From positions 1 to 63,255 of the forward strand of contig CAZIKE010000005.1 of assembly GCA_964539775.1 (NCBI GenBank): a DNA stretch of 63,255 bases, read 5' to 3'. Positions 5-15,026 of the stretch are shown piece by piece. Position 1 is the stretch's first letter. The number at the start of each line of letters is the position of its first letter. The notes under the pieces are model-generated. The model was not told the DNA's origin. It saw nothing but the letters and a program-made list of their open reading frames with translations, and ran no database searches. The position numbers were made by a program, and so were the translations under genes. This stretch comes from an uncultured Chitinophagales bacterium. Lineage in GTDB: Bacteria; Bacteroidota; Ignavibacteria; UBA10030; UBA6906.

Positions 5-1753
5 CTATTTGGTCAGGAGCATTTTCTTTGTGGCCGTGAAGCTCCCTGCTCTGAGCGTGTAGTAGTACACGCCGCTGGCAAGCGCCGGTGCGTAGAATTC
101 CGCGTCGTACGTCCCTGCCGTGCGATAGTCGTTTACGAGTGTCGCCACTTCCTGTCCGAGCGTGTTGTACACCTTCAGCGTCACATCGGTTCCTACCGGC
201 ACACTGTAGCGTATCGTCGTCGCTGGGTTAAACGGGTTGGGGTAGTTTTGCTCGAGCTTGAAGTCAGATGGAAGAGCGTTCCCCTGGCGTACATCCGTGA
301 TGATCGATGTCTTCAAGAACACCTGTCGGGTGCGTCGCGCTATCGTCCCGGGATCCCCAATAATAAAGCCGCCTGCTTCGGGATCTTCCTGCCACACCAG
401 GTTTACCATTCCCGGCTCATTGTAAGGGGAAACAGAAACAAAACGCTCATCAATTCCTCTTGTGTTTGTGATCCGCCGCGGATTCGACCATGACACGCCG
501 CCGTTCGTCGAGTACACCAAGAAGATATCGCTGCAGTTATACCCGTTGGCCGACGTGTCGTTGTTCATCATCGCATGATACGCAATCACGATCGTGTTGC
601 CCGACATGCCAATGGACGGCATGTCCAGAGTTGTTGTGTTGAATGTTGCGCGATTCTCAAACGGCGTCACGTTGGGTGTGTTGACCTTCGATGCCGCAAC
701 AACGATTCCGGTGGCCTGACTCCAGAAGGAAATCTGCGCGCTGTCGGTTGGTGCATTTGCCCCGCCATTGAGTTCCCCAAAAGCGACGAGCAGGTTGTTT
801 CCATTATAGACGCAATCGCTGCCGAGAGTATGGTAGAACGTGTCCGGCCCGACGACGCGTCCGTCTATCATAAAGCGCGTTCCCTGAGATGGCCATGAGG
901 CTCCATTGTTGGTCGATTCGAGGTAGTAAAGTCCATCATCAACCGCAGCAAACGATGGATTGAGTATGATGGCAACGCGTCCGGTTCCATTGGCTTTTGC
1001 GACCAACCCTGCGGAGGCTGCCGGCACAGTCGTCCCCCAAGCAGCCCATGTCGTAAAGTCAGTGGTTCGGGTGTAGTGCCCGGTATTTGCTCCGGATTTC
1101 GATGCGGACATTACAATTGACCCGTCGGCCGCTCCGGCAACATCCGGCCATATCGGCTCATCTGCGCCCCCGAGAATCGGAGGCGGTGTCAGTTCGGCGA
1201 ATGCGCCGGTACCGGGCGGCGAGTCCACAAAAACGATCGACTGTAAGTCGGTTGAGACAACGTTGTGGTTTGCGACGATTGTCCCTTGCGTTGTACCCTG
1301 AAGCATGTCCAGCGATGGGAAGCCGGCCCGGCGGGTTGGCACCTCAAGGCCGTCTGTCGTGCCAAACCGATTCCAACTCACACCACCGTTGCTGGAATAG
1401 GAGTAGTACACTCTCCTTGTGGGACCGGTGGGTGCCGCCGAATCGGGCGCACCCATGTACACCACGTGAATCTTGCTACCGGTTGCATCAGATGGATCAA
1501 CACGGACGTACTGACACGCTCCCGCATTTAACTGATAGTCATAGAATCCACTCAGTCCCGTGTATACGCCGGCCGCCGGGCGCATCGATGAGAAATCGGG
1601 TGGCGGTTCTGTTCGGGTATCTCTGTTCGAAGAAATAGCGAGTTCATCCGGCAATCGCACTTCTGCAAACTTCTTCTTCGCGTTGCTACCGGCAGCCGCC
1701 GACAGGGCAAAGATACAGATGGCAGTAAATACTGCAAGGAAGCGGGTACCCAT
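5..1753 (-). CDS. Secreted protein with Asp-box/BNR repeats and C-terminal T9SS type A sorting domain
   Basis: Start trimmed to ATG at 1753 (MGTRFLAVF..., signal-peptide-like, GAGGAG SD upstream). Three SxNG/NNGxSW Asp-box motifs (SSNGGVSW, STNNGASW, STNGGVSW). C-terminal LEQNYPNPFNPATTIRY...LASGVYYYTLRAGSFTATKKMLLTK is typical of the Por secretion tail. Confidence 0.85.
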   Translation of the reverse strand: MGTRFLAVFTAICIFALSAAAGSNAKKKFAEVRLPDELAISSNRDTRTEPPPDFSSMRPAAGVYTGLSGFYDYQLNAGACQYVRVDPSDATGSKIHVVYMGAPDSAAPTGPTRRVYYSYSSNGGVSWNRFGTTDGLEVPTRRAGFPSLDMLQGTTQGTIVANHNVVSTDLQSIVFVDSPPGTGAFAELTPPPILGGADEPIWPDVAGAADGSIVMSASKSGANTGHYTRTTDFTTWAAWGTTVPAASAGLVAKANGTGRVAIILNPSFAAVDDGLYYLESTNNGASWPSQGTRFMIDGRVVGPDTFYHTLGSDCVYNGNNLLVAFGELNGGANAPTDSAQISFWSQATGIVVAASKVNTPNVTPFENRATFNTTTLDMPSIGMSGNTIVIAYHAMMNNDTSANGYNCSDIFLVYSTNGGVSWSNPRRITNTRGIDERFVSVSPYNEPGMVNLVWQEDPEAGGFIIGDPGTIARRTRQVFLKTSIITDVRQGNALPSDFKLEQNYPNPFNPATTIRYSVPVGTDVTLKVYNTLGQEVATLVNDYRTAGTYDAEFYAPALASGVYYYTLRAGSFTATKKMLLTK

Positions 1754-1861
1754 GGCAGGTCTCCTCGGATTTGTGAAGTAGATAAAAAGACGTGCGTGCG
1801 CACTTCCGACCAGTACCGAAAAGGAGCGGCTCTGTCGCTCTGCAGAGTCAAGAAACAACAT

Positions 1862-1908
1862 TGCGTAACGAACTCCGGAAGTGACCGGCTTCCGAAGTCC
1901 GTTACGCA
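1862..1908 (-). terminator. Long imperfect hairpin downstream of the PorV-family gene (terminator or processing/stability element)
   Basis: TGCGTAACG (1862-1870) pairs with CGTTACGCA (1900-1908), with an inner GGAAG/CTTCC stem. Followed on the minus strand by ATGTTGTTTCTT. Confidence 0.5.
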
Positions 1909-1934
1909 GGCTTACGAACGTCGTGTCACCGCCC

Positions 1935-3017
1935 CTAGAATCCCAGACCGACGGTAAACACGTGGTTGTTCTCGAGGAACTTCACCGAGCGATACGCATA
2001 GTCGAACGACACATCCAGCGTGCCGAGCGTGTACTTCACGCCCGCTCCGGCCGTGAAACCGAAGATGTGGGTAGTCTTGTCGAAGGACGCGCTCGTCTTC
2101 ATGCCGGCGTTCTCTTTGATCTCGGCGAAGTTATATCCACCACGCACAAAGAAGAGGTTGGCGTAGTTGTACTCCAGACCCACCTTGTATTCATCGGCGG
2201 AGAAGTTGTTGTTCTGGAAGACACCCGAGAGCGAGACGAAGTTATCGTCGGTAACGGTGTAGTTGTACGCAAGGCCGATTTCAATCGTCGAGGGCAGCTC
2301 AAAGGAGGCAGCTTCCACCTTGTAGAAGGTACCCGGGCGAAGGACGTCAATCACGTTGCCCGTGCGCAACAACCCGTCGCCGTCGAATTTCATCTGCGGT
2401 CCGATGTTCTTCACCACCACGCCCAAGCTCAGACCGTTCACGTTTGCCAGGCCGCTATACTGCACACCGGCGTTGAACGCGAAGCCCGTCGCCGAGACGC
2501 GGTCGAACCGCTCGCTGATGAGGGTGAAGGTAGCACCGACGGAGATACGGTCGGTCAGCATCCGGGAGTACGTCAACCCTAAATTCACGATCGTCGGGTT
2601 GATGATGGCCCCGGTACCGTCGGGATTGTCCTCGTCGGTGACGGCAATGTCACCGACGCCGACGGACTTGATGCTGAGGCCTAACGTGCCGAAGCTTTCG
2701 AATGTTCCGCTGACGGCCACGTACTCGATACCGATGTCGGCAATGTAGTTCATATGCGAGAACATGGCGTTTGCGGAGTTCTTGGTGCGTGCCAGGCCTG
2801 CAGGGTTCCAGAAGATTGCATCCAGACCGCTGGAGGTGGCAACGGAGGCGCCGCCCATGGCGATGTCCCGAGCCCCCACCGGAATGAGGAGCTCGGATGC
2901 GGCGTTCGTCCCAACGCGGTTCTCACCACCCGCGTACGACGCCAGTGGCGCAGCGAGGACGAGGATGAGAAGCGCCACAGCCATGATGCTCATCCTGAAA
3001 AGTGCTTGCTGTTTCAT
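1935..3017 (-). CDS. PorV/PorQ-family outer-membrane beta-barrel protein
   Basis: Signal peptide, then LLIPVGARDIAMGGA and DAIFWNPAGLA motifs typical of the PorV/PorQ (FadL-like) family. Alternating amphipathic strands and C-terminal aromatic residue (..TVGLGF). Confidence 0.85.
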   Translation of the reverse strand: MKQQALFRMSIMAVALLILVLAAPLASYAGGENRVGTNAASELLIPVGARDIAMGGASVATSSGLDAIFWNPAGLARTKNSANAMFSHMNYIADIGIEYVAVSGTFESFGTLGLSIKSVGVGDIAVTDEDNPDGTGAIINPTIVNLGLTYSRMLTDRISVGATFTLISERFDRVSATGFAFNAGVQYSGLANVNGLSLGVVVKNIGPQMKFDGDGLLRTGNVIDVLRPGTFYKVEAASFELPSTIEIGLAYNYTVTDDNFVSLSGVFQNNNFSADEYKVGLEYNYANLFFVRGGYNFAEIKENAGMKTSASFDKTTHIFGFTAGAGVKYTLGTLDVSFDYAYRSVKFLENNHVFTVGLGF

Positions 3018-3041
3018 TTGCTTCTCCTTTCCAAATTTGAA

Positions 3042-6000
3042 TTAGAAGTTATCGAGGAATTGCTGTTCCTGGATAACGATCAGTTTCAACGTCTTCGTTA
3101 CGCCCAAGTCCGGCATGTTGATGTAGGCAATGTACACGCCGCTGGCAACGGGCAGCCCGTTGTTATTCTTGAGGTCCCAGTTCTGGTATTGCCCGTTGCG
3201 CTGTCGCGGAGCAGGCGAGGTCTCATCGAACGAGGCCACCAACGCTCCAGCGAGGTTGAAGATTCTGATCTCCGCCCGTGGCGGCAAGTGGTTGAACGTG
3301 ACGAACCGCTGGTTGCGCGACGTCTCCGCGCGGTTGAAGCCGTAGTACGGATTCGGGAAGACGTTGATCTTCGTAACGTCAGCCTTCGCGTTCGAGGCGC
3401 TGTATGTGGGGCCAGCGGGCGCCGTGAACTCGAACTTGTCGTTCTCTGTAATGACGCGATTGGGCGAGACAAGAATCGTACTCTGCGGAATGTCTGCAGT
3501 GTTGCCGGTAGCGTTCATCCACTCCGCAATCATCATGTACTGCTTGTCGCGCGCAACGCTACTGTTGATACCGAAGCCCTGTATGTTGTTGTTTGAACTC
3601 CCGTATGTCGTTCCATACGTGAAGGTCGTAGGATTGTCGCCATCATACGTTGTAGTGGTGACAAAGATGATTTCCAGGTTTCCGGGGGCCTGGGACGAAG
3701 CACCAACGTCCCACACACCATTCAAGTTCTGATCGCGCCATCCACAGTTGAGTTGGCGAGGCTGGGCTGGATTGGACACATCCCATACCTGGAAGGGCAC
3801 GTCGACGTAATTCAGGAACTTGTACCTGGAACCCGATTCCGTGCCGCTGAGGACAGCTCGAGTGTACCGATACGCCTTCTGTGTCCTTCCGGGGCCGAAG
3901 CGAAATTCGACGTCCAGATACTTATCTGGTGGCACACCGGGTCCTACTGCTCCCAAGTAAAGGACACTAACATCATACGCTGTTGTCGCCTGACTGCGCA
4001 GAACAGAGGTGGACGATGAATACCGACCGCCTCCTCTCAGCCAGTTCGTACCCTCGATAAACCTGCTACGATCCTCATTCAACTGCGGCGGTGGCCCTTG
4101 GACCGAGAGATACATGCCATCGATAATCGGGTAGTTGAACGGACTTCCGAAGATCGGAGGCACTTCGGGATCCAAGTTGTGCGTCCCCGGATCGATGGGT
4201 ACCGTAGGGCCCTGGTTCACGCTCCTATACAGCGTATCGGTACCACCTCGGATCAGGTACCAGTTGAGCTGGTCTATCGTGACGGTATCATAGTCCCCAT
4301 TGCTGTCAGGTCCATAGTAGAACGTCGTGGGGATATTCTTGAACGCCACCTGGTATGTCTTGCCTGTAAGGGCGGTCGGGTCAACAATGCGCGGCGAGGC
4401 ACCGCCATCGGTCTTTACAATGTTCGGATTGAGATTGGTAGGCGTAATCTCATCCCCATAGGCCGCCGATAAACGATACCCCGGATCGGGCGTCTGCGGC
4501 ACAATGGTGAGCACCTGCATCGAAGACTCCAACGCATGCGTCAGCGCTTGATCGCTGGGGTTGTACCCATAGGCCGTAACGGCAAAGTAGTATTTCTGCC
4601 CATTCACGAGAGGCAACTGGCGAATTGCATCCGACTCGATAACCATCTCGCGTTGGATGCCGCTGTCGGTACCTCGCTGCTTCACGACCGTGACGATGAT
4701 GCCCAACGATACGTCGAAGATGTTGTCATAGATTGTGCGAACACCGTTACCTTCGAGATCAAACGTGGCAAGCCTGACCGCCTGATCGAAGCTGGGGCTG
4801 GCCGTCGGAAGTTGATACACGTTGTAGCCTTCAAACTTGTATCCTTTCCTATCGAACTCTTCGGTTGCTCTTACAGCAGCGAGGTCGGAGCCCCAATCGA
4901 GGACGATCTGCTTATTGAGAGCAATACCCTTCACCTTTGGGGCCGGTGGCGCTTTCGGCAGATCGAAGAGGTCGTTGTAAGCATTCTGCACGGCAACGTC
5001 GTTATTCTTCATCACCGCCACGCTGCTAATATAGTCAGCGCCGATACCGGCCACAACGCCGACGACGATCTCTTGCGTGTCGCCGAGAGCCATCGTGAAC
5101 GGTCCGGAGCAGGCACCGATACGGCGATCACTGGGCTGGTCCACTGCGCCATCAAGTCGGCCGGTTCCTGCCACAGGGTCACCATCCAGCCAGAACTTTG
5201 TTGGACCAAGCTGTGGAAAACGGGGATGAACGAATGGCGTTCCATCAACAGGCGTCAGGCCCCGCAACAGATTATACCACTGAATGGTCCCCTGGCGGGT
5301 AAACGGCGGGTCGGAATACGTGCCACCGGCAGCAAAATAGAACGCTGCAGTCATCGGGAGATTCTTCTTGCCATAGACGCGCTTGAGACCGAACACTGCA
5401 CTATCTGTGGGGGCACCGGGAACGATCGGTCCTTGCAGGAAGTCATACCCAACCGCCGGCGGCTTCAGTCCGAACTTCGCATACTCGTTATCGACAGCGT
5501 CGCCGTTGTAGACGTAGACCAAGCTGAGCGTGGTATCGCAACCGGCGAAGTCGTCAGAGTAATCTCCCAGGTCCGGATCCGACCATTGGCCGACGTACAT
5601 GTCTGTAATGGTCGAGCCGGGAATCGAGGTCGCTGTCCCTTTGTAAATGAACGTGAACTTCTTGAAGTACACATTGGCCAAGGGATCGGTACGGTTGTAC
5701 CCCCAGAGCGTTACTTGCAACTCCAATCCTATGGGATTCGATCCATAGAGAGCGTTGGTCTTACCCGGGTTCAGGTCATTGCACACGAACCAAATAACCT
5801 GGTCTGCGTCGGCAATGCCTGGCTCATCGGCGTGCTTTGCAGGGTCGAACGTCTCGCCGATGCCGGGACGCAACTTCGGGGTGCCGTCGGCATTGAACGC
5901 CGGATTGTACTGCCCGTTACCATCAACATCGTAGAACGGTGCACCCTGCGTTGCAGGCCATTCTCTCCAGTCGGTCTCGTACTGGGCACGCACCGTCGCA

Positions 6001-6512
6001 ATATCACCGTCGGTAACGGCTGAGAGACCCTTTTCGAAGAATTCCGCCGCATCCTGTTTCAGATCGGCTGTTTTGAAGTCACGGCGGATCCGGTAGATCC
6101 TCACATCCGGATCGGTCGGCTGTGCGGCAACCCCGCGCGAAATGATGCGACCAGCGACGGTACCGATGCTATAGGTTTGCCCGCCGACACGCAGCACTTG
6201 CGAGCCGCCGTCATTCACGTTACCACCCCACACGATGCCATCCTGAAAGATCGCCGTCGATGTCCCGCGGGGATAGTACACACCCGAGTTCCCGGAGGAA
6301 GGAACACGGGCTGACCAACCGTCATTACGGATCCAGCCGGCGATATTGTTGATGTTGATAAGCGTTGACACCGGCTCACCCGTCGGCTTGCGCAGACTGC
6401 TGGTCTGCGCAGGCCTTCCCGATCGATCGCTCGCACTCGCCACTCCTGCAATGCTGAAGACCAGGAGGCCGGCAAAGACTACGCCTGCGATCGCGTGTGT
6501 TCGTTTACTCAT
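3042..6512 (-). CDS. Large secreted protein of unknown function with Fn3-like segment and T9SS-like/FlgD-Ig C-terminal domain
   Basis: Start probably ATG at 6512 (MSKRTHAIAGVVF..., signal peptide). Fn3-like PPAPKVKGIALNKQIVLDW..FEGYNVY. DxDGNG-type motifs. C-terminal INVFPNPY...IRIFNLAG...WDLKNNNGLPVASGVYI. Confidence 0.8.
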   Translation of the reverse strand: MSKRTHAIAGVVFAGLLVFSIAGVASASDRSGRPAQTSSLRKPTGEPVSTLININNIAGWIRNDGWSARVPSSGNSGVYYPRGTSTAIFQDGIVWGGNVNDGGSQVLRVGGQTYSIGTVAGRIISRGVAAQPTDPDVRIYRIRRDFKTADLKQDAAEFFEKGLSAVTDGDIATVRAQYETDWREWPATQGAPFYDVDGNGQYNPAFNADGTPKLRPGIGETFDPAKHADEPGIADADQVIWFVCNDLNPGKTNALYGSNPIGLELQVTLWGYNRTDPLANVYFKKFTFIYKGTATSIPGSTITDMYVGQWSDPDLGDYSDDFAGCDTTLSLVYVYNGDAVDNEYAKFGLKPPAVGYDFLQGPIVPGAPTDSAVFGLKRVYGKKNLPMTAAFYFAAGGTYSDPPFTRQGTIQWYNLLRGLTPVDGTPFVHPRFPQLGPTKFWLDGDPVAGTGRLDGAVDQPSDRRIGACSGPFTMALGDTQEIVVGVVAGIGADYISSVAVMKNNDVAVQNAYNDLFDLPKAPPAPKVKGIALNKQIVLDWGSDLAAVRATEEFDRKGYKFEGYNVYQLPTASPSFDQAVRLATFDLEGNGVRTIYDNIFDVSLGIIVTVVKQRGTDSGIQREMVIESDAIRQLPLVNGQKYYFAVTAYGYNPSDQALTHALESSMQVLTIVPQTPDPGYRLSAAYGDEITPTNLNPNIVKTDGGASPRIVDPTALTGKTYQVAFKNIPTTFYYGPDSNGDYDTVTIDQLNWYLIRGGTDTLYRSVNQGPTVPIDPGTHNLDPEVPPIFGSPFNYPIIDGMYLSVQGPPPQLNEDRSRFIEGTNWLRGGGRYSSSTSVLRSQATTAYDVSVLYLGAVGPGVPPDKYLDVEFRFGPGRTQKAYRYTRAVLSGTESGSRYKFLNYVDVPFQVWDVSNPAQPRQLNCGWRDQNLNGVWDVGASSQAPGNLEIIFVTTTTYDGDNPTTFTYGTTYGSSNNNIQGFGINSSVARDKQYMMIAEWMNATGNTADIPQSTILVSPNRVITENDKFEFTAPAGPTYSASNAKADVTKINVFPNPYYGFNRAETSRNQRFVTFNHLPPRAEIRIFNLAGALVASFDETSPAPRQRNGQYQNWDLKNNNGLPVASGVYIAYINMPDLGVTKTLKLIVIQEQQFLDNF

Positions 6513-6557
6513 GGCAGTCACCCATTAATGTTGATGAATGATACGTACCCGTTTCCC

Positions 6558-9500
6558 TTAATACGTGATGTACAATCCGAACCGAACTTGCCGCGGAGGA
6601 CCGAACAGATCGCCGCCACCAAATTCGTTGTTCGGGTCGAGCTGGTTGGCCCAGTAATGCTGCCGGTTCTGCAGGTTGATTGCCCGATACAGGTCGACGT
6701 AACGCGGCCCGTTGTTGGCAATGATTGCCCTGCTCAAGTTCGGATTGCTCAGGAAGCCGTCGTCCTCTGCGTTGCCGGTACGGCTGTAGACATTGTACAC
6801 GTTCTTGGTGTCGAGCAGGTTCTGCACGTACACATAAAAATTCACATCGAACAAGCCGGCGATGTTCACCGTCTTGTCAATGCGCAGATCGAGCTGGAAC
6901 ACCCAGGGTGTAGTCGAGGAGTTGAGTGCGCCTTCCGGCCGACGTGGACGCGGATCGTCGTCAGCCAGAATGCCCGCTTCCTCCGGACCGCGTTGCCCGC
7001 CACCGCTGTTGAACAAGGCCTTTGTGTAAGCATGACCGCTATTGAATGTGAAGAGCAGATTGGCGCCCAACCGTTCGAGGATCGGCCCACCATCATCCTT
7101 GCCGAAACGGTAATCAAGATTGACGGAGCCACGGTGCGTCTGGTTGAACTGCAGCGGCGAAATAATCAGCGGACGCTCGGGACCTGCTTGAACGGACGAA
7201 ACCGTTGTGCTTCGGCTGGAACCCGTACCCTGAGCATCGGAGAGCGTGTAGTTCACTGCAGCCTGAACACGATTGGTCCGGCGCAAGCGAACAGTCAACT
7301 CGACACCTTTCGTCGTCGCATAGTCTCCATTCACAAGAACATTGTAGGTTGCCGGTGATGCAACAACAGCCTCGTACTGAATCTGTCCTTTGATATCCTT
7401 GTAGAACGTCGTGATATCAAAGGATGCATTGTCGGTGAACTGCTGGGTGAAACCGATCTCATACTGTGTCGTACGAATCGGCTCAAGCGCCAGACCGACC
7501 GGGTTCGGGATGAAGTTGCGGCCCGACAGGAACAGTGCAAAGCGCGAGGTGCTTGTGTAGATATTGTCGAGCTGAGGCGCCTGCACGAACTTGCCGTATT
7601 GCACATGGAACACCGTCCGGTCCGTCACAGGGAAGGAGAAGCCCAAACGAGGGCTGACAGTCTTAAACGAGCCGACCTTCTCTGTCCCATTTTCGAAAAG
7701 TGTGAAATTCGCCTGGTCGTACGGAGGCCTGCTCGGATTTTTGAAGCGATACTGATCCATGTCGAATGAATCAAACCGCAAGCCTGCGTTGATCACGAGG
7801 TCGTTCACTTCGAACTTGTCTTGAATGTATGCCGAGATGAACTTCGGTTCTCGTGCACGGTCCAGTCCGCCACCATCATACTCATTCCCATAGATGTCGT
7901 AACCGTAGTTGCTTGGTATACCGGTGGAGCGCCACAACAGATCACGCTCGGCTCCTCCGTTGCGCGCAGCATCGGGATTCGAGAGCAATTGGATCAGCAG
8001 GGACTGCAAGCTGCCGATGGCATAGTTGCGAATCTTGTACTGGCGATAGGAGAAACCTGCCTTCAGTTCATGCTCGGTCAGTTGGTGGGTAACGTCGATT
8101 TGACCGCTATAGTAGTACTGCTTCCTCTTGGTGTACCCACCCATCAACGCGCCCGGGCGCGTGAAGGGGAAGCCGTTCGTACGCAGGTCGCGCGGCGACT
8201 CCCAGCGGCTGAAGTAGGTGGGCAAACCAGCCCGGACTGCAGCCACGCTATCCCCATACTTCATATAGTCATCCTTGAACACCGGGTCAAACCGCTTGAA
8301 TCGCGAATCCCAGTAGCTGAAGGTCAGGTCGTAATATGTTTGCGGCTGGATGAAGTGGGTGAGCTTGGCACTGTACAGGCCCGTGCTCGCCTCCTCATTC
8401 AGCAACCGTTGCTGGTTGAAGATGTTACGGATCGGGGTCGGATTGAAAAGCCCCTTGGAAAGGTTCAATGATGCACTCAGTCGCACGATGAACGGATTGT
8501 AATCGAACGTGAGTGTACCGTTCCCCGCCCAATACTGCAGCTTTCTGCCCGGAACATTTCCCGGCAACACAACGAGGTCGATCGTATCCGGTGCGGGCAG
8601 GCCGAAGTAGGGACTGTTCGGGTCGGTTACAATCGGGTTGTTCGGGTTACGATTGCTGCCCGCCACGTCCTCCACGAGGTCGTCGAACCGGAAGCCGCTC
8701 CAGAAGGCGGCTGTCGGGTCGGCTTGGAACGTGTTCTGTCCTGCGAGGAAGAACTTGATATTGTCTGTGATCGGACCGGAGAACGTCGCCGCATAATCCG
8801 TGTAGCCGTAGCTGTAGCCGCCAAGGAAGCTCTTTCCCCGCGATGTGAAGTCATCAGACTCCGCACGCAGCGAGGCAGAGTATGTGCTGCCGCCGCTCTT
8901 CAGTTGCTGGCGGACGATGCCGGCGTTTGCACCTCCGAATTCGGCGTTATAGCCACCGGCTTGCACCTGGAATTCCTCGAGCGCTTCGGGCACAATCTGT
9001 ATCGCCTGGCGGTTTGTGCGTGCATCACGAGCATCGGCACCATCGATATAGTAGCCAACTTCATCGAGGCGACCGCCGCGGATGAACAACTCACCGCCCT
9101 GCTGCACAATACCCGCCTGCAGCGCAACGACTGCACCCACACCACGCACAGGGATGTTTGCAAGCTCGTCCCCGCTCACAATGCGCACGGCGTTCGTCGC
9201 GCTCTTGTTCACCAGCGGACGCTCGGCAGTGATTTCGATGGCACCGATTTGAACCGCTTCAGGAGCCAGCGAGAAGTTTAACTCGGTCGTCAGGTCGGCG
9301 CTCACGCGCACATTGGATACAACCGTCGGCGCATAGCCGACGAAGCTTGCTCTGACAGAGTAGACGCCGACGGGTACATTGAGAATCGTGTACTCGCCGT
9401 CCACGTCGGTACGGGCACCGTAGCTCGTTCCCTCGACCGCCACGTTGGCGCCCACCAACACTTCCTTGGTTTCTCTGTCGATCACCTTCCCTCTGATTTT

Positions 9501-9572
9501 GCCGGTCACGGCTGCATACAGAAGCGCCGGCAAGAGCAGCAGAGAGAGGATTGCAACGAACTTCTTACTCAT
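6558..9572 (-). CDS. TonB-dependent receptor with N-terminal carboxypeptidase-regulatory-like domain
   Basis: Start ATG at 9572 with GGAGG SD. N-terminal GKIRGKVIDRETKEVLVGANV domain, plug motifs (FIRGGRLDEVGYYIDG; GGYNAEFGGANAGIV), ~1000 aa barrel, C-terminal PRQVRFGLYITY. Confidence 0.93.
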   Translation of the reverse strand: MSKKFVAILSLLLLPALLYAAVTGKIRGKVIDRETKEVLVGANVAVEGTSYGARTDVDGEYTILNVPVGVYSVRASFVGYAPTVVSNVRVSADLTTELNFSLAPEAVQIGAIEITAERPLVNKSATNAVRIVSGDELANIPVRGVGAVVALQAGIVQQGGELFIRGGRLDEVGYYIDGADARDARTNRQAIQIVPEALEEFQVQAGGYNAEFGGANAGIVRQQLKSGGSTYSASLRAESDDFTSRGKSFLGGYSYGYTDYAATFSGPITDNIKFFLAGQNTFQADPTAAFWSGFRFDDLVEDVAGSNRNPNNPIVTDPNSPYFGLPAPDTIDLVVLPGNVPGRKLQYWAGNGTLTFDYNPFIVRLSASLNLSKGLFNPTPIRNIFNQQRLLNEEASTGLYSAKLTHFIQPQTYYDLTFSYWDSRFKRFDPVFKDDYMKYGDSVAAVRAGLPTYFSRWESPRDLRTNGFPFTRPGALMGGYTKRKQYYYSGQIDVTHQLTEHELKAGFSYRQYKIRNYAIGSLQSLLIQLLSNPDAARNGGAERDLLWRSTGIPSNYGYDIYGNEYDGGGLDRAREPKFISAYIQDKFEVNDLVINAGLRFDSFDMDQYRFKNPSRPPYDQANFTLFENGTEKVGSFKTVSPRLGFSFPVTDRTVFHVQYGKFVQAPQLDNIYTSTSRFALFLSGRNFIPNPVGLALEPIRTTQYEIGFTQQFTDNASFDITTFYKDIKGQIQYEAVVASPATYNVLVNGDYATTKGVELTVRLRRTNRVQAAVNYTLSDAQGTGSSRSTTVSSVQAGPERPLIISPLQFNQTHRGSVNLDYRFGKDDGGPILERLGANLLFTFNSGHAYTKALFNSGGGQRGPEEAGILADDDPRPRRPEGALNSSTTPWVFQLDLRIDKTVNIAGLFDVNFYVYVQNLLDTKNVYNVYSRTGNAEDDGFLSNPNLSRAIIANNGPRYVDLYRAINLQNRQHYWANQLDPNNEFGGGDLFGPPRQVRFGLYITY

Positions 9573-9631
9573 AGTATCCTCCAATGAATTTGGGGCTTGT
9601 TATGTTTGAATTCGACATCATGAAAGAACCG

Positions 9632-11533
9632 TCAGTGATTTGCCTTTGCTTCCTGCTTCCTGGCTTCCGCGCGTTTCTCCTGCACAGGCGTGGGAGCGGG
9701 TGCCGGAGAAGCAACCTGACGATCATCGAGCTTGATGATCTGGAAGGTTGACCCTGAGCCGACGGCGAGAAGGGTGTACATCTTCCCGTTCTCAAAGTTG
9801 AACGTCTGACTTGTCACTGCGTATTGACCTTTGGTCGAATCGATTTCAACCTGGCCGCGCACAGCACCGTTGGGGAACTGGCTGGTGGCAAAGTTGAAAT
9901 ACACATTACCTTCGTTCAACAGTCTCCCGGCACTATCAGGGGGAACGCCCGTTATGGCTGCTGTGTAGTCGTTAACCGTGAATTCGTCGGGCACAGCCTG
10001 ACCGCGGATCTCGCCTCCAGGGTTGGCCGCCGTGTGGAAATTGAAGTACATGCGGCTGAAGGCAAATTCGTCTTTGATGTTGGTGAACGCCGTGCCGGTG
10101 AAGCGTCCGCTAAAGGTATTCGTATGCGTCGCATTGGGAATAAGATCGGCACGAATAAGTCCAAGCGGCCTCCCGACACTGTGGAAGTTCACATAGATTC
10201 TTCCAAGGCGAATCGAGTCGACAAGAGCATCCGTGAGAGGCTGCGTGGCATCGGTACGCTTCCACGTACCCGCGAGCGTCCGTGCGGTGTCACTCCACGA
10301 CGTCGTCCGAATATCCTTTGCTATCAGGCCGGTCGCCGCAAAATGGAAATGAGCAGCCGTAAACGTCGTATCGAAGAGGTCACGGCGCACACGGATGGAA
10401 TACACCAGAGAGTCGCGGTACAAGGTAAAGTTGCATGTGGCATTTGCCGTCGTATTCTGTCCGGTTGCCGTTATCACCGGGAAGCTGATGATTTGCTTGG
10501 CAACGCTGATCGTGTGAATAACCGGTCCATTGGATCCGGCAGGAGCATTGTGAATGTGGGCGGCGGTAAAGAAGCCCATCGCGTTCGGCGTCACCGTCGT
10601 GATGGTATATGAGGCACCGGCGGTGGGAGTATCATCGTTGACAACCGACAACACCACCTTTCCTGTTGCACTGGTGGTTACCGGAGGAACTTCGTTGGCA
10701 CCGCTCAGGCGAATAGTATCAAAGGACATCGTCTGAGTCTTGACAGAGATGGGATAGAGAATGCTTCCGTTTGTCCCAGGTGCTCCTATCCGTAACGCAC
10801 CCTCGGTAAAGAATCCTTCAGAGTTCTTTGAGCGGATGGTCACACTCACAGCGACCCCTCCATCAACGGAAAGATCAACAGTTCCTAATCCCGTGGAGGC
10901 GGAGTTCGTTGGGGGAACAACATTGCCTCCGTTGATCCCATTTGCCGGTGTCTTGTACCCACCGCTGGAGATAGCAAAGACGGTCATCTGACCGGCAGGC
11001 TGCGACGTGTCATATGCAGCCGCAGACCCGTAGCCAGCAGTTTTCAAGTTGTTGGAAACCTGGGTGTTCAGTCGGACAGAATCCTTGCGAAACACCACCG
11101 AAGCAGCTCCCCCGGTTGCAACGTTGATGAATCGGATGTTGGGCTTGTTCCGGAAGGCGTTGTTCTTATTACTGTATCCCTCGTTGAGGTTCAAAAGCAG
11201 AGAGCCGTTCGGACCATAAATCACGAGAGTGCTTTGATGCTCGGAGGCAAACGTAATCGTTTGGGCAGAGTTGGACCCAAACGCCACCTGCCGGCTACCG
11301 GAAGCAACGTCCACGTAGGCGCTTGGTGTCCCAAACGATACATTGGCGACTGTTGCTCCATCAACTTTGACATCTCCTGCGGCCGCACCTGCAACGGCAT
11401 GCAGGAAGCGCACCAGAGAACGGAAGTTCAGCGTGACGTCCGTCCCCGGGCCGCTGGGAATGTCAACACAAGCTCCCCACACTCCCACGAGTAGCAAGAG
11501 GCCGAGCGCAAGGAAAAGCTTTCTCAAACTCAT
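9632..11533 (-). CDS. Lipoprotein with DUF4397-like domains and three CHRD domains
   Basis: Lipobox VWGA-C22. VRFLHAV and IRFINVA DUF4397-like strands. CHRD motifs LSGANEVPPV, AAHIH..GSNGPVI, YFNFHTAANPGGEIRGQ. Confidence 0.8.
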   Translation of the reverse strand: MSLRKLFLALGLLLLVGVWGACVDIPSGPGTDVTLNFRSLVRFLHAVAGAAAGDVKVDGATVANVSFGTPSAYVDVASGSRQVAFGSNSAQTITFASEHQSTLVIYGPNGSLLLNLNEGYSNKNNAFRNKPNIRFINVATGGAASVVFRKDSVRLNTQVSNNLKTAGYGSAAAYDTSQPAGQMTVFAISSGGYKTPANGINGGNVVPPTNSASTGLGTVDLSVDGGVAVSVTIRSKNSEGFFTEGALRIGAPGTNGSILYPISVKTQTMSFDTIRLSGANEVPPVTTSATGKVVLSVVNDDTPTAGASYTITTVTPNAMGFFTAAHIHNAPAGSNGPVIHTISVAKQIISFPVITATGQNTTANATCNFTLYRDSLVYSIRVRRDLFDTTFTAAHFHFAATGLIAKDIRTTSWSDTARTLAGTWKRTDATQPLTDALVDSIRLGRIYVNFHSVGRPLGLIRADLIPNATHTNTFSGRFTGTAFTNIKDEFAFSRMYFNFHTAANPGGEIRGQAVPDEFTVNDYTAAITGVPPDSAGRLLNEGNVYFNFATSQFPNGAVRGQVEIDSTKGQYAVTSQTFNFENGKMYTLLAVGSGSTFQIIKLDDRQVASPAPAPTPVQEKRAEARKQEAKANH

Positions 11534-11954
11534 TGCAGTGTTCTCCTATTTTATGGATGGATGAGTTACAAGAAACGATCGTTCCTGGTTTACGCCTCAC
11601 CAGAGAACGTAATTGTGTGAAACGACTTCAGCATTCTGCACGGACAGGCCTTCATGCACAACCGTTAGAATGTTTCTATGTACGTTGCAGATGGTAGAAC
11701 CCGAAACGACTACCGCCTCGGCTATGAAGCATCATCATCTCGGAAGATGAGCGCGATGGTGTGTGGTGTGCGCGCTTGAGAGTTCTCTGAGTGACATCCT
11801 CTCACGACCAGATGCGCGCAGCGCTCGTCACGTTTCCAGTACTATTGGTTTTTGTTTGGTAAGGGTTGTGGAAGTTGTAACAATCTGTTCGGTGGTGACC
11901 TCCTCTATTTGATGTTGGGGATTCGGACAGTCAGATAGGCAATTGTTACGCTCC

Positions 11955-11983
11955 AATATAAATACAGGGGGTATCTTTGTCAA
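11955..11983 (-). promoter_or_regulatory. Sigma70-type promoter for the CHRD-TBDR module
   Basis: Minus strand reads TTGACA (11983-11978), 17-nt spacer, TATATT (11960-11955). Confidence 0.75.
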
Positions 11984-12026: not shown

Positions 12027-13607
12027 TCAATCCAACCGAGCCACGCGCAGATTTGAGATTCCTTCCTGACCGACCAGTTCCTCCCACGCCGCCGCGGGGA
12101 TATCGCTATCGATGTTCATGACGGTTAATGCGCTTTGACCGGCGGCTGTTCTGCTGAGCGAGACAGCAGCAATGTTCACGTCATACCGGGCTAAGATCGC
12201 GCCGACGCGTGCGAGCATTCCGGGTCTGTCGATATTGTTGTAAATGAGCAGAAAACCCTCGGGGTTTACCTCAAAACGAAAACCGTCGAGTTTCACAAGG
12301 CGGATTGCCGAAGGTTCGTACACCGTGCCCGCCAACTCATGCTCTCGGCCTTTGCTCCGATAGCGCAAACGCAGGAGATTGGTAAAATTGTCCGCAGCAG
12401 CATCGCGTTCCTCATTGACCACAAGACCCATCTCTGCTGCATGCAGCGGAGCGTTGACAAAGTTCACCGGTTCAGGGAGAACGTTGGACAGCAGTCCTTT
12501 CAACACGCCGGTCTTCACCAGGGCAAGAGCAGAAATGGCAAGCTCGCCGGCGGCGCACACCGTAAGCCCTTCCAGCTTATCCGTACTCAACTGCGCGGCA
12601 AGACTGCCGAGCTTCTCCGCAAGTGCAGCATACGGGCGAAACTCGTCATTCATTGCCAACTGCAGCGCTTCGCCGTTGACGAGACCGGTATAGCCACGAC
12701 CCTTCAACGCATCCGCAATCTGGTGCGCGATCTGGACGGCGACTTTCTCCTGTGCCTCTTCCGTTGAAGCGCCGAGATGTGGCGTCACGACTACGTGTGC
12801 ATGCTGCAGCAACGCTGTGTTCTTCGGCGGCTCTTCCTCGAATACATCCAGCGCTGCGCCACCCACCTGACCCGACTTCAGAGCGCGCAGCAGCGCGCCT
12901 TCATCAATGATGCCGCCACGAGCGCAGTTCACCACCCGAACCCCGCGCTTGCACCTCGCCAACGTCTCATCGTTCAGTAAACCCTTCGTCTCTTTCGTCA
13001 GCGGCGTGTGCAGCGTGATGAAATCCGAGCGACGGAACAACTCGTCGAGACTCACCATTTCAATGTTCAGCTTGGCAGCAACATCAACCGAAAGCACTGG
13101 ATCGTATCCGATGATGTGCATGCCGAACGCCTGACAGCGGCTCGCTACTTCACGGCCGATCTTCCCCAACCCCACAACGCCGAGCGTCTTCTCGAAGACC
13201 TCGACGCCGGTGTATTTCTTGCGCTCCCACTTTCCCTCCATAAGACTGGCATGGGCATGAGGAATATTGCGCGCAAGTGCAAGCAACATGGACACGGTGT
13301 GCTCGGCTGCCGAAATGGTGTTCCCACCCGGTGTATTCATGACCAACACGCCTTTGCGTGTCGCTGCCGGGACGTCGATGTTATCCACGCCGGTGCCGGC
13401 CCTTCCTACCACTTTGAGACGCGTCGCGCCGGCAAGAACATCGGCGGTCACCTTTGTGGCACTGCGAACCACCAGGGCATCGTATTCGCCGATGATGCGC
13501 TTCAACTCATCGGCGGCGATGCCGGGTTTGTTGTGCACCTCAAACCCCTCATGAACGAGGATATCAATGCAGCTCTGTTCGAGCTGGTCGCTGACCAGTA
13601 CTTTCAT
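12027..13607 (-). CDS. serA: D-3-phosphoglycerate dehydrogenase (type I, with ASB and ACT domains)
   Basis: Start trimmed to ATG at 13607 (MKVLVSD). VVGRAGTGVDNID, GVVGLGKIG, PHLGASTEEAQ and C-terminal ACT domain (NIDRPGMLARVG). Confidence 0.96.
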   Translation of the reverse strand: MKVLVSDQLEQSCIDILVHEGFEVHNKPGIAADELKRIIGEYDALVVRSATKVTADVLAGATRLKVVGRAGTGVDNIDVPAATRKGVLVMNTPGGNTISAAEHTVSMLLALARNIPHAHASLMEGKWERKKYTGVEVFEKTLGVVGLGKIGREVASRCQAFGMHIIGYDPVLSVDVAAKLNIEMVSLDELFRRSDFITLHTPLTKETKGLLNDETLARCKRGVRVVNCARGGIIDEGALLRALKSGQVGGAALDVFEEEPPKNTALLQHAHVVVTPHLGASTEEAQEKVAVQIAHQIADALKGRGYTGLVNGEALQLAMNDEFRPYAALAEKLGSLAAQLSTDKLEGLTVCAAGELAISALALVKTGVLKGLLSNVLPEPVNFVNAPLHAAEMGLVVNEERDAAADNFTNLLRLRYRSKGREHELAGTVYEPSAIRLVKLDGFRFEVNPEGFLLIYNNIDRPGMLARVGAILARYDVNIAAVSLSRTAAGQSALTVMNIDSDIPAAAWEELVGQEGISNLRVARLD

Positions 13608-13617
13608 CTTGTGTGAT

Positions 13618-13648
13618 AGAAAAAATGAGGGGGGGACATAGCCCCCGG
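13618..13648 (-). terminator. Intrinsic terminator-like hairpin between the aminotransferase and serA
   Basis: Minus strand GGGGG-CTATGT-CCCCCCC followed by TCATTTTTT. Confidence 0.5.
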
Positions 13649-13663
13649 AAAAGAAGGACGAAC

Positions 13664-14803
13664 TCAGTTCATTGTCAGAAACGCATTTTGTGTGGCAGCA
13701 AGGCCGGCCCCCACGCTGAACTTGTATCCTACAGCGGAGAGCGTTCGCTCCAGTGCACCGACGAACGCAATCATGTCCAGCTCGTCGTAGTACCCGAGGT
13801 GTGAGACGCGAAAGATCTTGTCCTTGTAGTCGTCCTGACCCCCGGCAATGGTGATGCCGATCTCTCCCTTGAGTATTTTGTTGAACGCTTTCCACGCAAC
13901 GCCCTCCGGCACCCACACCGGTGTCACGGCATACGACGGGGAATCGGAGAAGAGCTTGAGACCGAGAGCCTGGATGCCGGCACGCAGAGCCGTGGCCAAT
14001 CGTTCATGCCGCCGCCATACATTCTCGATTCCCTCTGCCTTGATCATCTGCAGTGCAAGATCGACGCCGATGATGAGTGACACTGCAGGCGTGAACGGAG
14101 TATCGTTGTCCGCATAGGATTTCAGCGCTTTGCGTAAGTCGAAGTAGAACTTGGGCATCTTGGAGGTCTCCATCATCGCAATGGCGCGTTGGCTGAGCGC
14201 GACAAATGCGAGTCCGGGTGGAATCATCAAGCCCTTTTGCGAGCCGGTCACGCACACATCGAGTCCCCATTCATCGAAGCGCAGTTCGTGCGCGCCCACC
14301 GCGGTGATGCCATCGACGCACACCAGCGCGTTGGAATTCTCGCGAATCAGTTTTGCCATCGCTTTGACATCTGTGGCGGTGCCGGTGGAGGTTTCGCTGT
14401 GAACAAGATACACGGCTTTTGCTGCGGGATGAGTTTTCAACGCGTTGAGAATCTGCTCAGGCGTCGGGGCCTTTCCCCATTCGGTTTTGATCTCGACCGC
14501 GTTCATCCCGAAAGCGCGCGGCATCTTGACCCAGCGCTCGCCGAACTTTCCGCCATTCACGGAAATGACCGTGTCGCCCGGCGAAAACAAACTGACGAAT
14601 GTCGATTCGACGCCGCCCGTGCCAGAGCAGGTGAGTGTCAGCACCGGCTGCTGCGTTTGGAACAGATACTTCAGGTTCGCATTCACCCGCGTCAACACTT
14701 CGTTGAACTCGGGATTGCGATGATGGATGATCGGCTCAGCCATTCTGAGCATGACATGTTCGGGTACCGGGGTCGGGCCCGGCGTGAAGAGTCGTTTTTT
14801 CAT
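13664..14803 (-). CDS. Class-V PLP-dependent aminotransferase (serine-pyruvate/alanine-glyoxylate family, likely acting as phosphoserine aminotransferase)
   Basis: LFTPGPT, VHSETSTG, VDGIT and TGSQKGL (PLP lysine) motifs; adjacent to serA. Confidence 0.92.
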   Translation of the reverse strand: MKKRLFTPGPTPVPEHVMLRMAEPIIHHRNPEFNEVLTRVNANLKYLFQTQQPVLTLTCSGTGGVESTFVSLFSPGDTVISVNGGKFGERWVKMPRAFGMNAVEIKTEWGKAPTPEQILNALKTHPAAKAVYLVHSETSTGTATDVKAMAKLIRENSNALVCVDGITAVGAHELRFDEWGLDVCVTGSQKGLMIPPGLAFVALSQRAIAMMETSKMPKFYFDLRKALKSYADNDTPFTPAVSLIIGVDLALQMIKAEGIENVWRRHERLATALRAGIQALGLKLFSDSPSYAVTPVWVPEGVAWKAFNKILKGEIGITIAGGQDDYKDKIFRVSHLGYYDELDMIAFVGALERTLSAVGYKFSVGAGLAATQNAFLTMN

Positions 14804-15026
14804 GATGATGCTCGCTTTCTCAAGGTGAAGGTACGTACGTGTTCAGTGAAGCGGAAGTCAACCGCAGGCAATGTAGCAAAAACAAATCTGAGAATCACGC
14901 GCCCGTAGAATAGAATAAGAATGCTCGGCAAGGACCCATCAACACTGGAGAGAACCTTCGAGGGGAAAGAAGCACGAGCGAAAAGAGGCAGGCAAGGTGC
15001 GCGCTGGAGTCCCTTACGGCGCTGTA

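Follow-up and report, generated by a model that had tools for sequence, protein, structure and literature searches.

Three genes of the 63,255 nt stretch of DNA analysed here (the window), namely g2, g3 and g4 encoding a TonB-dependent receptor (TBDR), a large secreted protein and a PorV/PorQ-type barrel, were shown to form an ancient, vertically inherited outer-membrane cassette of non-Bacteroidia FCB lineages. The triad is real and widespread, with the same gene order in several related phyla that are mostly uncultured, and no published description of it was found in the literature searched. The genome that carries it here is a hot-spring, Ignavibacteria-like genome. The initial annotation of this DNA described a unit of five co-directional envelope genes. 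All five open reading frames are indeed found on the minus strand, but the conserved core consists of g2-g3-g4 only, as full-length g1 and g5 are confined to the closest relatives.

Conservation of the triad

The neighbourhood survey covered 80 genome loci from Ignavibacteriota, Latescibacterota, Calditrichota, KSB1, Kryptoniota and Marinimicrobia. Of the loci that could be tested, 61 of 64 have a g2-type TBDR as the immediate upstream neighbour of the g3 homologue, and 67 of 69 a PorV/PorQ-like barrel as its immediate downstream neighbour; Pfam-annotated gene contexts agree with the TBDR-g3-barrel order. The initial annotation had proposed that a similar triad recurs in Ignavibacteria/Calditrichota-like genomes; the survey confirmed this and added Latescibacterota, KSB1, Kryptoniota and Marinimicrobia. 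In ~95% of >60 loci at phylum-level distances the genes retain their order, orientation and short spacing, an arrangement far beyond chance. Locus L001 reads TBDR-g3-TBDR-g3-PorV, and tandem copies were also seen in L027, L051 and L068; TBDR-g3 pairs duplicate as units. Further, the divergence of the three triad proteins is correlated (r 0.82-0.88, 59 triads).

In divergent lineages the locus adjoins ribosomal, EngB and serCA genes, and T9SS cargo genes often lie downstream of the module. A T9SS core in the triad-bearing genomes is implied by these neighbouring Por_Secre_tail cargo genes. Within the window, the spacers among the first four genes were measured as 59, 45 and 24 nt, in accordance with the ~24-59 nt reported before, when counted to starts with a Shine-Dalgarno-like sequence 5' of them (weak for g3).

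The three proteins of the core

The first gene of the triad, g2 (6558..9572, minus strand), was identified as a TBDR by Pfam and NCBIfam, and its start is ATG 9572 with GGAGGA just 5' of it. The protein has an N-terminal CarboxypepD_reg domain (NTE-type), a Plug and a large barrel, the latter with partial matches to TonB-receptor NCBIfam models. The SusC/RagA model aligns to the N-terminus only, with 67 bits (cutoff 368). The barrel has diverged too far to be placed in a specific TBDR subfamily and so gives no lead on the substrate. A TBDR + DUF4249 pair is also present elsewhere in the window (57900-61029).

The second gene, g3 (3042..6512, minus strand), encodes 1156 aa from its ATG, an uncharacterised secreted protein of an unnamed family with an SPI-type signal peptide and a matched C-terminal domain (CTD). 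No Pfam family matched g3, even at E<=10; the family comprises >1,449 homologues, and 3,174 clusters at 50% identity and E<=1e-30. Counting residues from the GTG at 6521, the protein consists of a conserved part (~41-680), a variable module (~720-1040) and a conserved PorZ-like T9SS CTD (~1041-1159), with the C-terminal extension IIQEQQFLxNF. The conserved part starts with a beta-supersandwich-like domain (~45-528) followed by a beta-rich stretch. The AF2 model has a mean pLDDT of 82.5, and in fold searches the N-terminal domain resembled only the non-catalytic beta-supersandwich of GH15/GH65/GH94/GH116 enzymes, no catalytic domain being present; the beta-rich stretch gave weak FnIII-type matches. 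In homologues the variable region holds CHRD, a PSII_BNR propeller, or PKD + dockerin. In the window, CHRD and BNR domains are encoded by the separate genes g1 and g5, which constitutes a gene-fusion (Rosetta-stone) link.

The g3 CTD (residues 1041-1159; 3045..3401, minus strand) has seven predicted beta-strands in the AF2 model, and in the conservation profile it is one of the most strongly conserved regions of g3. It matches positions 663-756 of the PorZ model (E 7e-10), and this CTD is the only region of g3 that aligns (37.9 bits, cutoff 260). As to the T9SS tail ascribed to g3 earlier, the PorZ C-terminal domain is matched, but TIGR04183 gave 18.3 bits in this protein, under its cutoff of 23. 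The PorZ model fits the CTD better than does the model of generic cargo tails, and among 42 family members tested the PorZ model was matched by all 42, TIGR04183 by 38 and PorU by 12. PorZ and PorU are T9SS proteins with retained CTDs, docked on PorQ and PorV (PMC10202324), and by analogy the PorZ/PorU-model match fits a docking of g3 on its own barrel.

That barrel, g4 (1935..3017, minus strand), is of the PorV/PorQ family (FadL-like), with 186 bits for NF033709 (cutoff 90) and a match to PDB PorV 6h3i_F at E 1e-9. All equivalog scores are below their cutoffs (PorQ 93/220, PorV2 82/325, PorV 81/250), so that by these cutoffs g4 is not a housekeeping PorV or PorQ, and the previous description of the barrel as a PorV paralog holds. 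By gene order g4 is genomically dedicated to g3. At L079 a different TBDR and two small lipoproteins precede a close paralogue of g4, and the stretch from receptor to barrel encodes no CTD protein of 150 aa or more; this barrel may hence partner the receptor or the lipoproteins and not a CTD.

Leader and flanking genes

A sigma-70-type promoter-like site, TTGACA-17-TATATT (11955..11983, minus strand), agrees with the consensus at 11 of 12 positions, and both hexamers are invariant in the relatives L003, L006 and L009. The site put forward as a near-consensus promoter for the five genes is present as a candidate promoter, and no RNA run was found that contains this sequence. However, g5 probably belongs to a separate or attenuated unit, given the terminator-like hairpin described below. 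The site is situated ~420 nt 5' of the g1 ATG, which implies a long leader (about 420 nt; 11534..11954, minus strand). Its conserved blocks in the same three relatives include AGGAGGT, ~50 nt past the -10 hexamer; inspection revealed no conserved ORF in the leader and an Rfam search at E<=1 no match.

The 633 aa product of g1 (9632..11533, minus strand) is a probable lipoprotein with two N-terminal DUF4397 domains and four CHRD domains (Pfam, 62 and 132 bits, respectively) and a lipobox-like N-terminus with Cys22. After the hydrophobic leader it shares the motif C-[VA]-D-[IV]-P-[ST] with short upstream lipoproteins of other loci, and in roughly 1/4 of the loci a short DUF4397 lipoprotein stands in place of g1. 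We regard g1 as a lineage-specific accessory outside the conserved core.

A terminator-like 20-bp hairpin (1862..1908, minus strand; dG -33.7 kcal/mol, z -5.6) is found 3' of g4. It is kept in L003 and L004, and by eye a hairpin of other sequence occupies the same place in L009. The g5 gene (5..1756, minus strand) encodes a T9SS type-A cargo protein with BNR/Asp-box repeats (three Asp-boxes and Por_Secre_tail) which scores 42 bits for TIGR04183 (cutoff 23) and, as ordinary cargo, matches neither the PorZ nor the PorU model. Its start is likely ATG 1756, preceded by GAGGAG, and not ATG 1861. This leaves 178 nt between g4 and g5 with the hairpin within, hence the suggested separate or attenuated transcription of g5. 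In a 91%-identical relative (L084) four Por_Secre_tail paralogues stand in tandem, g5 at their head. The gene is a lineage-specific addition in the form of an inserted tandem array.

Candidate function and alternatives

We suggest that the triad may be a SusD-independent capture-and-import module for a nutrient, and give this mechanism, taken as a whole, an even chance of being correct. In line with the initial annotation, no SusD-family protein was detected at the locus by Pfam search. The suggestion draws on the linkage of both TBDR and barrel to g3 across at least six phylum-level lineages, on the short spacers and the one conserved promoter-like site, on the co-duplication of TBDR-g3 pairs and the correlated divergence, and on a g4 that passes the family model and is no housekeeping equivalog. 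Likewise, the g3 CTD is highly conserved and PorZ/PorU-like while g5 matches neither of these two models, the variable region of g3 swaps modules, and the g3 N-terminal domain is of a non-catalytic type. Counted against it are the sub-cutoff TIGR04183 score of the g3 CTD, the divergence of the g2 barrel and the L079 arrangement; further, the ribosomal, EngB and serCA neighbourhood would also fit a housekeeping role in the envelope.

The SusC/SusD and RagA/RagB systems of Bacteroidota polysaccharide/peptide-utilisation loci resemble the triad in a ~1000-aa TBDR with CarboxypepD_reg-type N-terminal extension immediately before a surface-exposed partner, and in tandem duplication of pairs with a diversifying partner. 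They differ in that the triad has no SusD-family protein and a g2 weak on the SusC/RagA model, that its partner is the beta-rich, T9SS-tailed g3 instead of an alpha-helical lipoprotein, and that a PorV/PorQ-like barrel is a third obligatory gene. Non-SusD surface partners beside a TBDR are also seen in HmuY-HmuR hemophore/TBDR pairs and in the TBDR + DUF4249 pair, but those partners are small and without PorV-like barrel. By analogy, g4 could be compared with the 14-stranded FadL/PorV-like barrel of BamG-BamH in the Bacteroidota BAM complex, a membrane platform which holds a large surface-exposed protein beside another barrel (PMC12578637), although there the other barrel is BamA and not a TBDR, and the surface protein a lipoprotein and not T9SS cargo.

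A PorZ/PorU-model CTD and a PorV/PorQ-family barrel are likewise combined in PorZ-PorQ and PorU-PorV of the Porphyromonas gingivalis T9SS attachment complex. It is conceivable, but in our view unlikely, that g3 and g4 make up a T9SS module for surface assembly or attachment that is specific to the lineage and has a task of the PorZ-PorQ type (such as glycolipid presentation or cell-coat organisation), with the receptor co-regulated and mechanistically separate. The PorZ and PorU matches of the family CTDs point this way, as do PorQ being the top-scoring specific equivalog of g4, the core-genome position and the T9SS cargo genes that often come after the module. However, g3 is unlike PorZ/PorU outside the CTD, the strand pattern of its model did not, at a first look, suggest the two PorZ beta-propellers, g4 falls under the PorQ and PorV cutoffs, and the TBDR is linked about as tightly as the barrel. 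Multiple and tandem copies with variable-module swaps are also easier to reconcile with diversification of substrates than with one housekeeping machine. The P. gingivalis PorZ/PorQ and PorU/PorV genes are not known to be arranged as cargo-barrel pairs beside a TBDR.

We also find it improbable that g3 serves as an adhesin or coat protein of the cell surface, held there by g4 in the manner of SprB/SprF, with the receptor signalling or importing tethered matter indirectly. Cognate type B CTD cargo/shuttle gene pairs are established, the barrel determining the final localisation of the cargo (PMC12618676, PMC10202324), also for adhesins (PMC12618676), and a cargo gene linked to a dedicated PorV-like barrel gene is common to the triad and SprB-SprF of Flavobacterium johnsoniae. 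The large, multidomain, beta-rich g3 with its weak FnIII-type matches and swappable PKD/dockerin/CHRD modules would suit such a role. On the other hand, the models matched by the g3 tail are type-A-tailed ones (PorZ, TIGR04183) and not those of a type B CTD, g4 belongs to the PorV/PorQ and not the PorP/SprF family (a weak PorP_SprF match was seen only in L083), the most conserved part of g3 is its N-terminal 640 aa and not a repetitive stalk, and the near-obligate upstream receptor stays unexplained. Type A CTDs are stated to all use PorV in the source on cargo/shuttle pairs (PMC12618676 or PMC10202324), hence a type A CTD with a barrel of its own would represent a variation on this scheme.

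Very unlikely, we believe, is g2 as an Oar-like TonB-dependent exporter or anchoring pore which together with g4 puts g3 on the surface and in this bypasses the canonical T9SS translocon in part or altogether. Protein export in Myxococcus requires Oar, and PF25183 (OMP_b-brl_4), which we take to cover Oar-type receptors, was found in the homologous receptors of L001; the L079 barrel partnering a TBDR points in the same direction. But the Pfam search gave no PF25183 match in g2 of the window, g3 has a recognisable T9SS-type CTD, ordinary T9SS cargo genes are present in the same loci, and we know of no precedent for a TBDR exporting a ~120 kDa protein. Adjacency without functional coupling, by chance or shared envelope regulation only, is strongly disfavoured by the conserved arrangement and joint duplication and can practically be dismissed.

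Under capture and import, g3 would be taken across the inner membrane by Sec and, via its CTD, through the outer membrane by T9SS. Like PorZ/PorU and unlike ordinary cargo, it would keep this CTD and use it for docking on the adjacently encoded g4 barrel. The conserved N-terminal two-thirds of g3 would then sit on or beside the g2 receptor, and the variable module would bind the substrate and pass it to TonB-energised g2 for import. In this lineage g1 may be an extra surface binding subunit added upstream, and g5 with its paralogues an ordinary T9SS cargo array, inserted 3' of the triad and transcribed separately. The triad would thus function as SusC/SusD or RagA/RagB do, except that a partner delivered by T9SS and anchored on a barrel replaces the SusD lipoprotein.

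Gene layout and transcription signals

Five large open reading frames lie head-to-tail on the minus strand, from 11533 to 5. The first gene, g1 (11533..9632), encodes a 633-aa protein with four CHRD and two DUF4397 stretches, and is followed by g2 (ATG 9572..6558), a TonB-dependent receptor (TBDR) with a CarboxypepD_reg-type domain and a Plug, by g3 (ATG 6512..3042), a secreted protein of 1156 aa without Pfam family, and by g4 (3017..1935), a 360-aa barrel of the PorV/PorQ family (NF033709). [quoted passage not shown] The spacers g1/g2, g2/g3 and g3/g4 are 59, 45 and 24 nt, counted to starts with a Shine-Dalgarno-like sequence before them, which is weak for g3. The promoter-like site TTGACA-17-TATATT (11983..11955, minus strand) matches at 11 of 12 positions, and both hexamers are unchanged in an alignment with three relatives. 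The initial annotation had described five co-directional genes, with spacers of about 24-59 nt among the first four, behind a near-consensus promoter, and all of these features are present in the window as described.

Between the promoter-like site and the ATG of g1 lies a leader of about 420 nt (11534-11954, minus strand). Blocks of it are conserved in three related loci (L003, L006 and L009), with AGGAGGT about 50 nt past the -10 hexamer, and the leader could act as a regulatory RNA. An Rfam search of the 420 nt gave no match at E<=1. A small leader peptide behind AGGAGGT was considered and rejected, as inspection of the alignment revealed no ORF conserved among the window, L006 and L009.

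The g4 gene is followed by a 20-bp hairpin (1908..1862, minus strand; dG -33.7 kcal/mol, z = -5.6, no shuffle being equally stable), and the beginning of the ORF 5..1861 falls inside it. With ATG 1756 as the start of g5, the distance from the end of g4 is 178 nt, with the hairpin within. The related loci L003 and L004 share this hairpin, and L009 has, as judged by eye, one of different sequence in the same place. With the start of g5 at 1756 and the hairpin before it, transcription of the unit most likely stops or is attenuated behind g4. The short spacers, the one conserved promoter-like site and the hairpin give indirect support to a putative g1-g4 operon. The sequence derives from a hot-spring metagenome; it occurs in only two sequencing runs, both of hot-spring metagenome DNA, and in no RNA runs.

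Conservation of the triad and its surroundings

A profile of 42 g3 homologues was searched against species-representative genomes, which gave 585 confirmed matches. The best 80 of these loci were taken, all their ORFs were searched with the five window proteins, and adjacency was then counted. By the records' own titles, which may be imprecise for some MAGs, the 80 loci belong to Ignavibacteriales/Ignavibacteria, Melioribacteraceae, Latescibacterota, Calditrichia/Calditrichota, KSB1, Kryptonia/Kryptoniota, Marinimicrobia/Neomarinimicrobiota, Handelsmanbacteria and 'Bacteroidota' MAGs. A g2-type receptor is found directly upstream of the g3 homologue, on the same strand, in 61 of the 64 testable loci, and a PorV-like barrel directly downstream in 67 of 69; independent Pfam-annotated contexts concur with this order. 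The recurrence of a TBDR/T9SS-tail/PorV triad in Ignavibacteria- and Calditrichota-like genomes, suggested in the initial annotation, is thus borne out among the best 80 loci. Of the five-gene module proposed there, g2-g3-g4 is conserved, whereas full g1 and g5 occur only in close relatives.

The g1 product matches Pfam CHRD with 132 bits and DUF4397 with 62 bits, and its N-terminus is lipoprotein-like (LLLVGVWGA directly followed by CVDIPSG). The full form with CHRD and DUF4397 is restricted to the closest relatives (L003-L009, L020 and L084); about one quarter of the loci have a short DUF4397 lipoprotein (~200-260 aa) upstream of the receptor, with a C-[VA]-D-[IV]-P-[ST] N-terminus like that of g1. 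As g1-like lipoproteins were detected in 10 of 53 loci by lipobox-motif search and in 14 of 54 by homology clustering, we regard g1 as accessory and not core.

The g5 product has three Asp-boxes and a type A C-terminal domain (CTD), with 42.3 bits to TIGR04183 (cutoff 23) and 32.4 bits to PF18962 (cutoff 27), and does not match the PorZ or PorU models. Genes like g5 are confined to close relatives. In L084 (14774-22079), where g3 is 91% identical, g5 heads four tandem Por_Secre_tail paralogues of 581, 571, 570 and 599 aa, with g4 on one side of them and an NHL-repeat gene on the other; the end of the window falls within or just behind the first paralogue of this array. Closely behind g4, L007 and L020 have an NHL-repeat-type gene, as does L043 at a distance of 301 nt, and the array therefore looks like an insertion. 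Among the loci the barrel is followed by a GWxTD-domain protein of ~460 aa in 16 (L025 5332-6726 and 15 others), by a PIG-L-domain protein of ~780 aa in six (L033 12648-14966 and five others), and by an NHL-repeat protein of ~290 aa in four (L007 12486-13358 and three others).

Upstream of the cassette the window contains SecY (19925-21250), minus-strand ORFs, an EngB-like GTPase (15027-15641), serC and serA, and in the related loci L083 and L084 the place of the minus-strand ORFs past SecY is taken by ribosomal-protein and rpoA genes. The gene order before the cassette in L084 (1-4502) is that of the window, and in L083 (1-6960), where g3 is about 50% identical, the cassette comes directly after L17 and the GTPase. 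The window and these two loci thus share the position of the cassette, behind a SecY/ribosomal-protein/rpoA/L17 cluster and an EngB-like GTPase (12027-21250 in the window), with or without serC-serA; serA is the upstream neighbour also in L041, L048, L056, L075 and L079. A position shared across divergent lineages speaks for a core-genome locus that is old and has been inherited vertically.

Other parts of the window were also annotated. Rfam on the whole window gave tRNAs only: a cluster of five genes (Trp, Thr, Gly, Tyr, Thr) at 47083-47796 and a lone tRNA-Gln at 22520-22591, both on the minus strand. Near the tRNAs are EF-G and two large ORFs on the minus strand (1436 and 1256 aa, 35622-43754), presumably rpoC and rpoB, all of it ordinary core-genome content. 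Two adjacent squalene/phytoene-synthase family genes (55173-56959, minus strand) adjoin an amine-oxidase/desaturase-type gene (53840-55216), and together they are probably a carotenoid or squalene-derived lipid locus.

The receptor, the barrel and the g3 family

Residues 127-222 of g2 match the Plug model PF07715 (29.6 bits, cutoff 23.9), and a candidate TonB box, GAIEITAERP, was seen by eye in the translation between the N-terminal domain and the plug. The putative 22-strand C-terminal barrel shows partial matches (residues ~490-830) to TIGR01785, TIGR01786, TIGR01783 and others, far under their cutoffs, and no Pfam match, a permissive Pfam scan (E<=10) adding nothing. To the SusC/RagA model TIGR04056 the receptor scores 67.3 bits, with a cutoff of 368.25, and only residues 29-149 align. 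None of the five window proteins matches the SusD Pfam models at E<=0.01, so that the locus does not qualify as a canonical PUL, in agreement with the initial annotation, which had seen no SusD partner. The same genome has a different non-SusD receptor/partner pair at 57900-61029 on the plus strand, made up of a second TBDR (744 aa, CarboxypepD_reg and Plug) and, behind it, a DUF4249 protein of 322 aa.

The g4 product belongs to the PorV/PorQ family over its full length (NF033709, 186.1 bits, cutoff 90). It scores 40 bits to Pfam PorV, and its sole PDB relative by sequence is PorV (6h3i_F, E 1e-9). The equivalog cutoffs are not reached for PorQ (93.4 of 220), PorV2 (81.7 of 325) or PorV (80.6 of 250), and by this score test g4 is none of the three housekeeping proteins. 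Adjoining the triad in the related locus L079 (14932-19407) is a different module of a TBDR of 855 aa, two paralogous lipoproteins of ~200 aa with an SCKEPLP lipobox, and a close g4 paralogue; this receptor and barrel are not separated by any ORF of 150 aa or more that could encode a CTD protein. A barrel without a CTD protein suggests that PorV-like barrels may be general platforms next to TonB receptors, by analogy with BamG, which holds BamH beside BamA (PMC12578637). The L079 arrangement cuts against a purely CTD-centred role of the barrel.

The g3 protein belongs to a large family that has no Pfam or NCBIfam model. No Pfam family was matched even at E<=10, and in NCBIfam g3 matches only the C-terminal ~95 positions of PorZ and, under the cutoff, TIGR04183. 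More than 1,449 homologues were found among the 90% clusters scored, and an exhaustive search gave 3,174 clusters at 50% identity with E<=1e-30. Counting residues from a GTG at 6521, residues ~41-680 and the C-terminal ~120 are conserved (consensus fraction 0.56-0.74, but 0.44 in block 201-240), and variation is found at residues ~720-1040 (0.24-0.44). Many Asp, Trp and Gly residues of the N-terminal domain are invariant, among them a D-x-D-x-G-D-x-x-D-D cluster, which we read as a likely Ca-binding loop. Within the family the variable region holds CHRD in P0069, P0091 and P0157, PKD with dockerin in P0131, and a PSII_BNR propeller in P0223. Since CHRD and BNR occur in g3 homologues but in separate genes (g1 and g5) here, the two domain types have a gene-fusion (Rosetta-stone) link to the system.

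Neither P0098 nor the 1156-aa window product had a record at look-up. The AF2 model of g3 is good (mean pLDDT 82.5). The profile of 42 members gave nothing against all PDB chains at E<=0.1, and Foldseek with the whole model against PDB gave multi-domain noise only, the best being PorZ at TM 0.09 (structure 5m11). The N-terminal domain, also modelled alone for the fold search (pLDDT 69.8), shows only a weak resemblance (E ~3e-4, TM ~0.3), namely to the beta-supersandwich, a non-catalytic domain, at the N-terminus of dextran dextrinase, GH116, GH94 and GH65 enzymes. As no catalytic domain is present, we do not call g3 a glycosidase.

At its other end g3 has a CTD with seven predicted beta-strands. 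It scores 18.3 bits to TIGR04183 (cutoff 23), the window protein having no Pfam match, and 37.9 bits to PorZ (cutoff 260), over model positions 663-756 only, which is the CTD (E 7e-10), and so does not match PorZ in full length with its two beta-propellers. Among the 42 family members all CTDs match the PorZ model, 38 match TIGR04183 (E<=0.01) and 12 match PorU; several homologues carry the NCBI name 'T9SS type A sorting domain-containing'. Eleven residues extend past the last CTD strand, a Phe-ended IIQEQQFLxNF (3045-3080, minus strand), which is specific to the family, conserved across phyla and absent from the ordinary cargo g5. PorZ and PorU are T9SS proteins with uncleaved CTDs bound to PorQ and PorV, and cognate PorV-like barrels have been proposed in review to shield CTDs from cleavage (PMC10202324). 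We predict g3 to be T9SS-exported; in the window and the 10-kb flanks of the relatives, neighbouring Por_Secre_tail cargo genes imply a T9SS in the genome.

Proposed function and its alternatives

We suggest that the triad forms one outer-membrane machine. The g3 protein would be exported by Sec and then by the T9SS, and would retain its PorZ-like CTD, by which it would be held on the g4 barrel. Its conserved N-terminal part would associate with the g2 receptor, and its exchangeable module would catch substrate for TonB-dependent import. The gene content, the conserved order, the family assignments, the pattern of conservation and the swapping of modules are established by the analysis; all protein contacts, a CTD that is kept, the transport direction and the substrate are what we infer here. 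Of the readings considered this one seems to us the most likely, with roughly equal chances of holding or failing. Its likeness to SusCD/RagAB lies in the proposed way of working; the triad is not a member of that class, being without SusD and having a receptor far under the SusC cutoff.

Alternatively, g3 and g4 could have a PorZ/PorQ-like role in surface assembly, the receptor being merely co-regulated. The resemblance to PorZ-PorQ concerns the CTD of g3 and the barrel g4 and is limited to these, and we consider this role unlikely. Similarly unlikely in our view is that g3 serves as an adhesin or in the cell coat and has a shuttle dedicated to it. Dedicated cargo/shuttle gene pairs have been shown experimentally for type B CTDs with PorP/SprF-like barrels, and PorV is named there as the barrel for type A CTDs (PMC12618676). 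The pairing of cargo and shuttle genes is alike in SprB-SprF, but here the CTD matches type-A-tailed models and the barrel is of the PorV/PorQ type.

The g2 orthologues in L001 and L083 match PF00593 or PF25183, the latter an Oar-linked family, and on this basis g2 could be an outward-acting, Oar-like receptor, which we find quite improbable beside the import proposed above.

It should be noted that the pairwise divergences of the three triad proteins are correlated (r 0.82-0.88, 59 triads), which is consistent with co-evolution, but as this is expected for co-inherited neighbours we do not take it as evidence of contact. Tandem copies are found in L001, with the order TBDR-g3-TBDR-g3-PorV, and in L027, L051 and L068, hence the receptor is duplicated together with g3, and two such pairs can precede a single barrel. 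That genes arranged in this way should have no functional coupling is hardly credible.

Returning to the capture-and-import machine, we tentatively extend it beyond this genome: non-Bacteroidia FCB lineages, here Ignavibacteriota, Calditrichota, Latescibacterota, KSB1, Kryptoniota, Marinimicrobia and relatives, could possess a general alternative to SusC/SusD, in which a TBDR works with a T9SS-delivered surface subunit for capture, held permanently by its retained CTD on a dedicated PorQ-like barrel, an exchangeable module sets the substrate, and a three-barrel system links T9SS and TonB uptake. This is possible rather than probable.

No description of the triad was found in the literature searched on PorV, TonB, T9SS, Ignavibacteria, Calditrichota, Melioribacter, DUF4397 and other subjects, nor does it figure in the genome papers of Caldithrix and Melioribacter. 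We conclude that the triad is real, widespread and uncharacterised, and that the mechanism proposed for it is plausible.

Much of the feeding of Bacteroidota is explained by TonB-dependent uptake in which the receptor has a surface partner (SusCD, RagAB), and the handling of T9SS cargo by shuttles of the PorV type is under active study; to our knowledge, almost all of this work has been done in Bacteroidia. If our reading is right, the cassette combines both in a single unit that is nearly universal in several phyla, abundant and for the most part uncultured, of sediment, soil, marine and hot-spring habitats, and would offer a way to study macromolecular nutrient acquisition there. For CTDs matching type-A-tailed models it would bring in a class of pairs, each of a retained CTD and a dedicated barrel, and it would define a large protein family (~3,200 clusters at 50% identity) for which we found neither Pfam/NCBIfam model nor paper. 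Further, the swapping of modules (CHRD, BNR, PKD/dockerin) would place bacterial CHRD and DUF4397 domains in a functional context for the first time.
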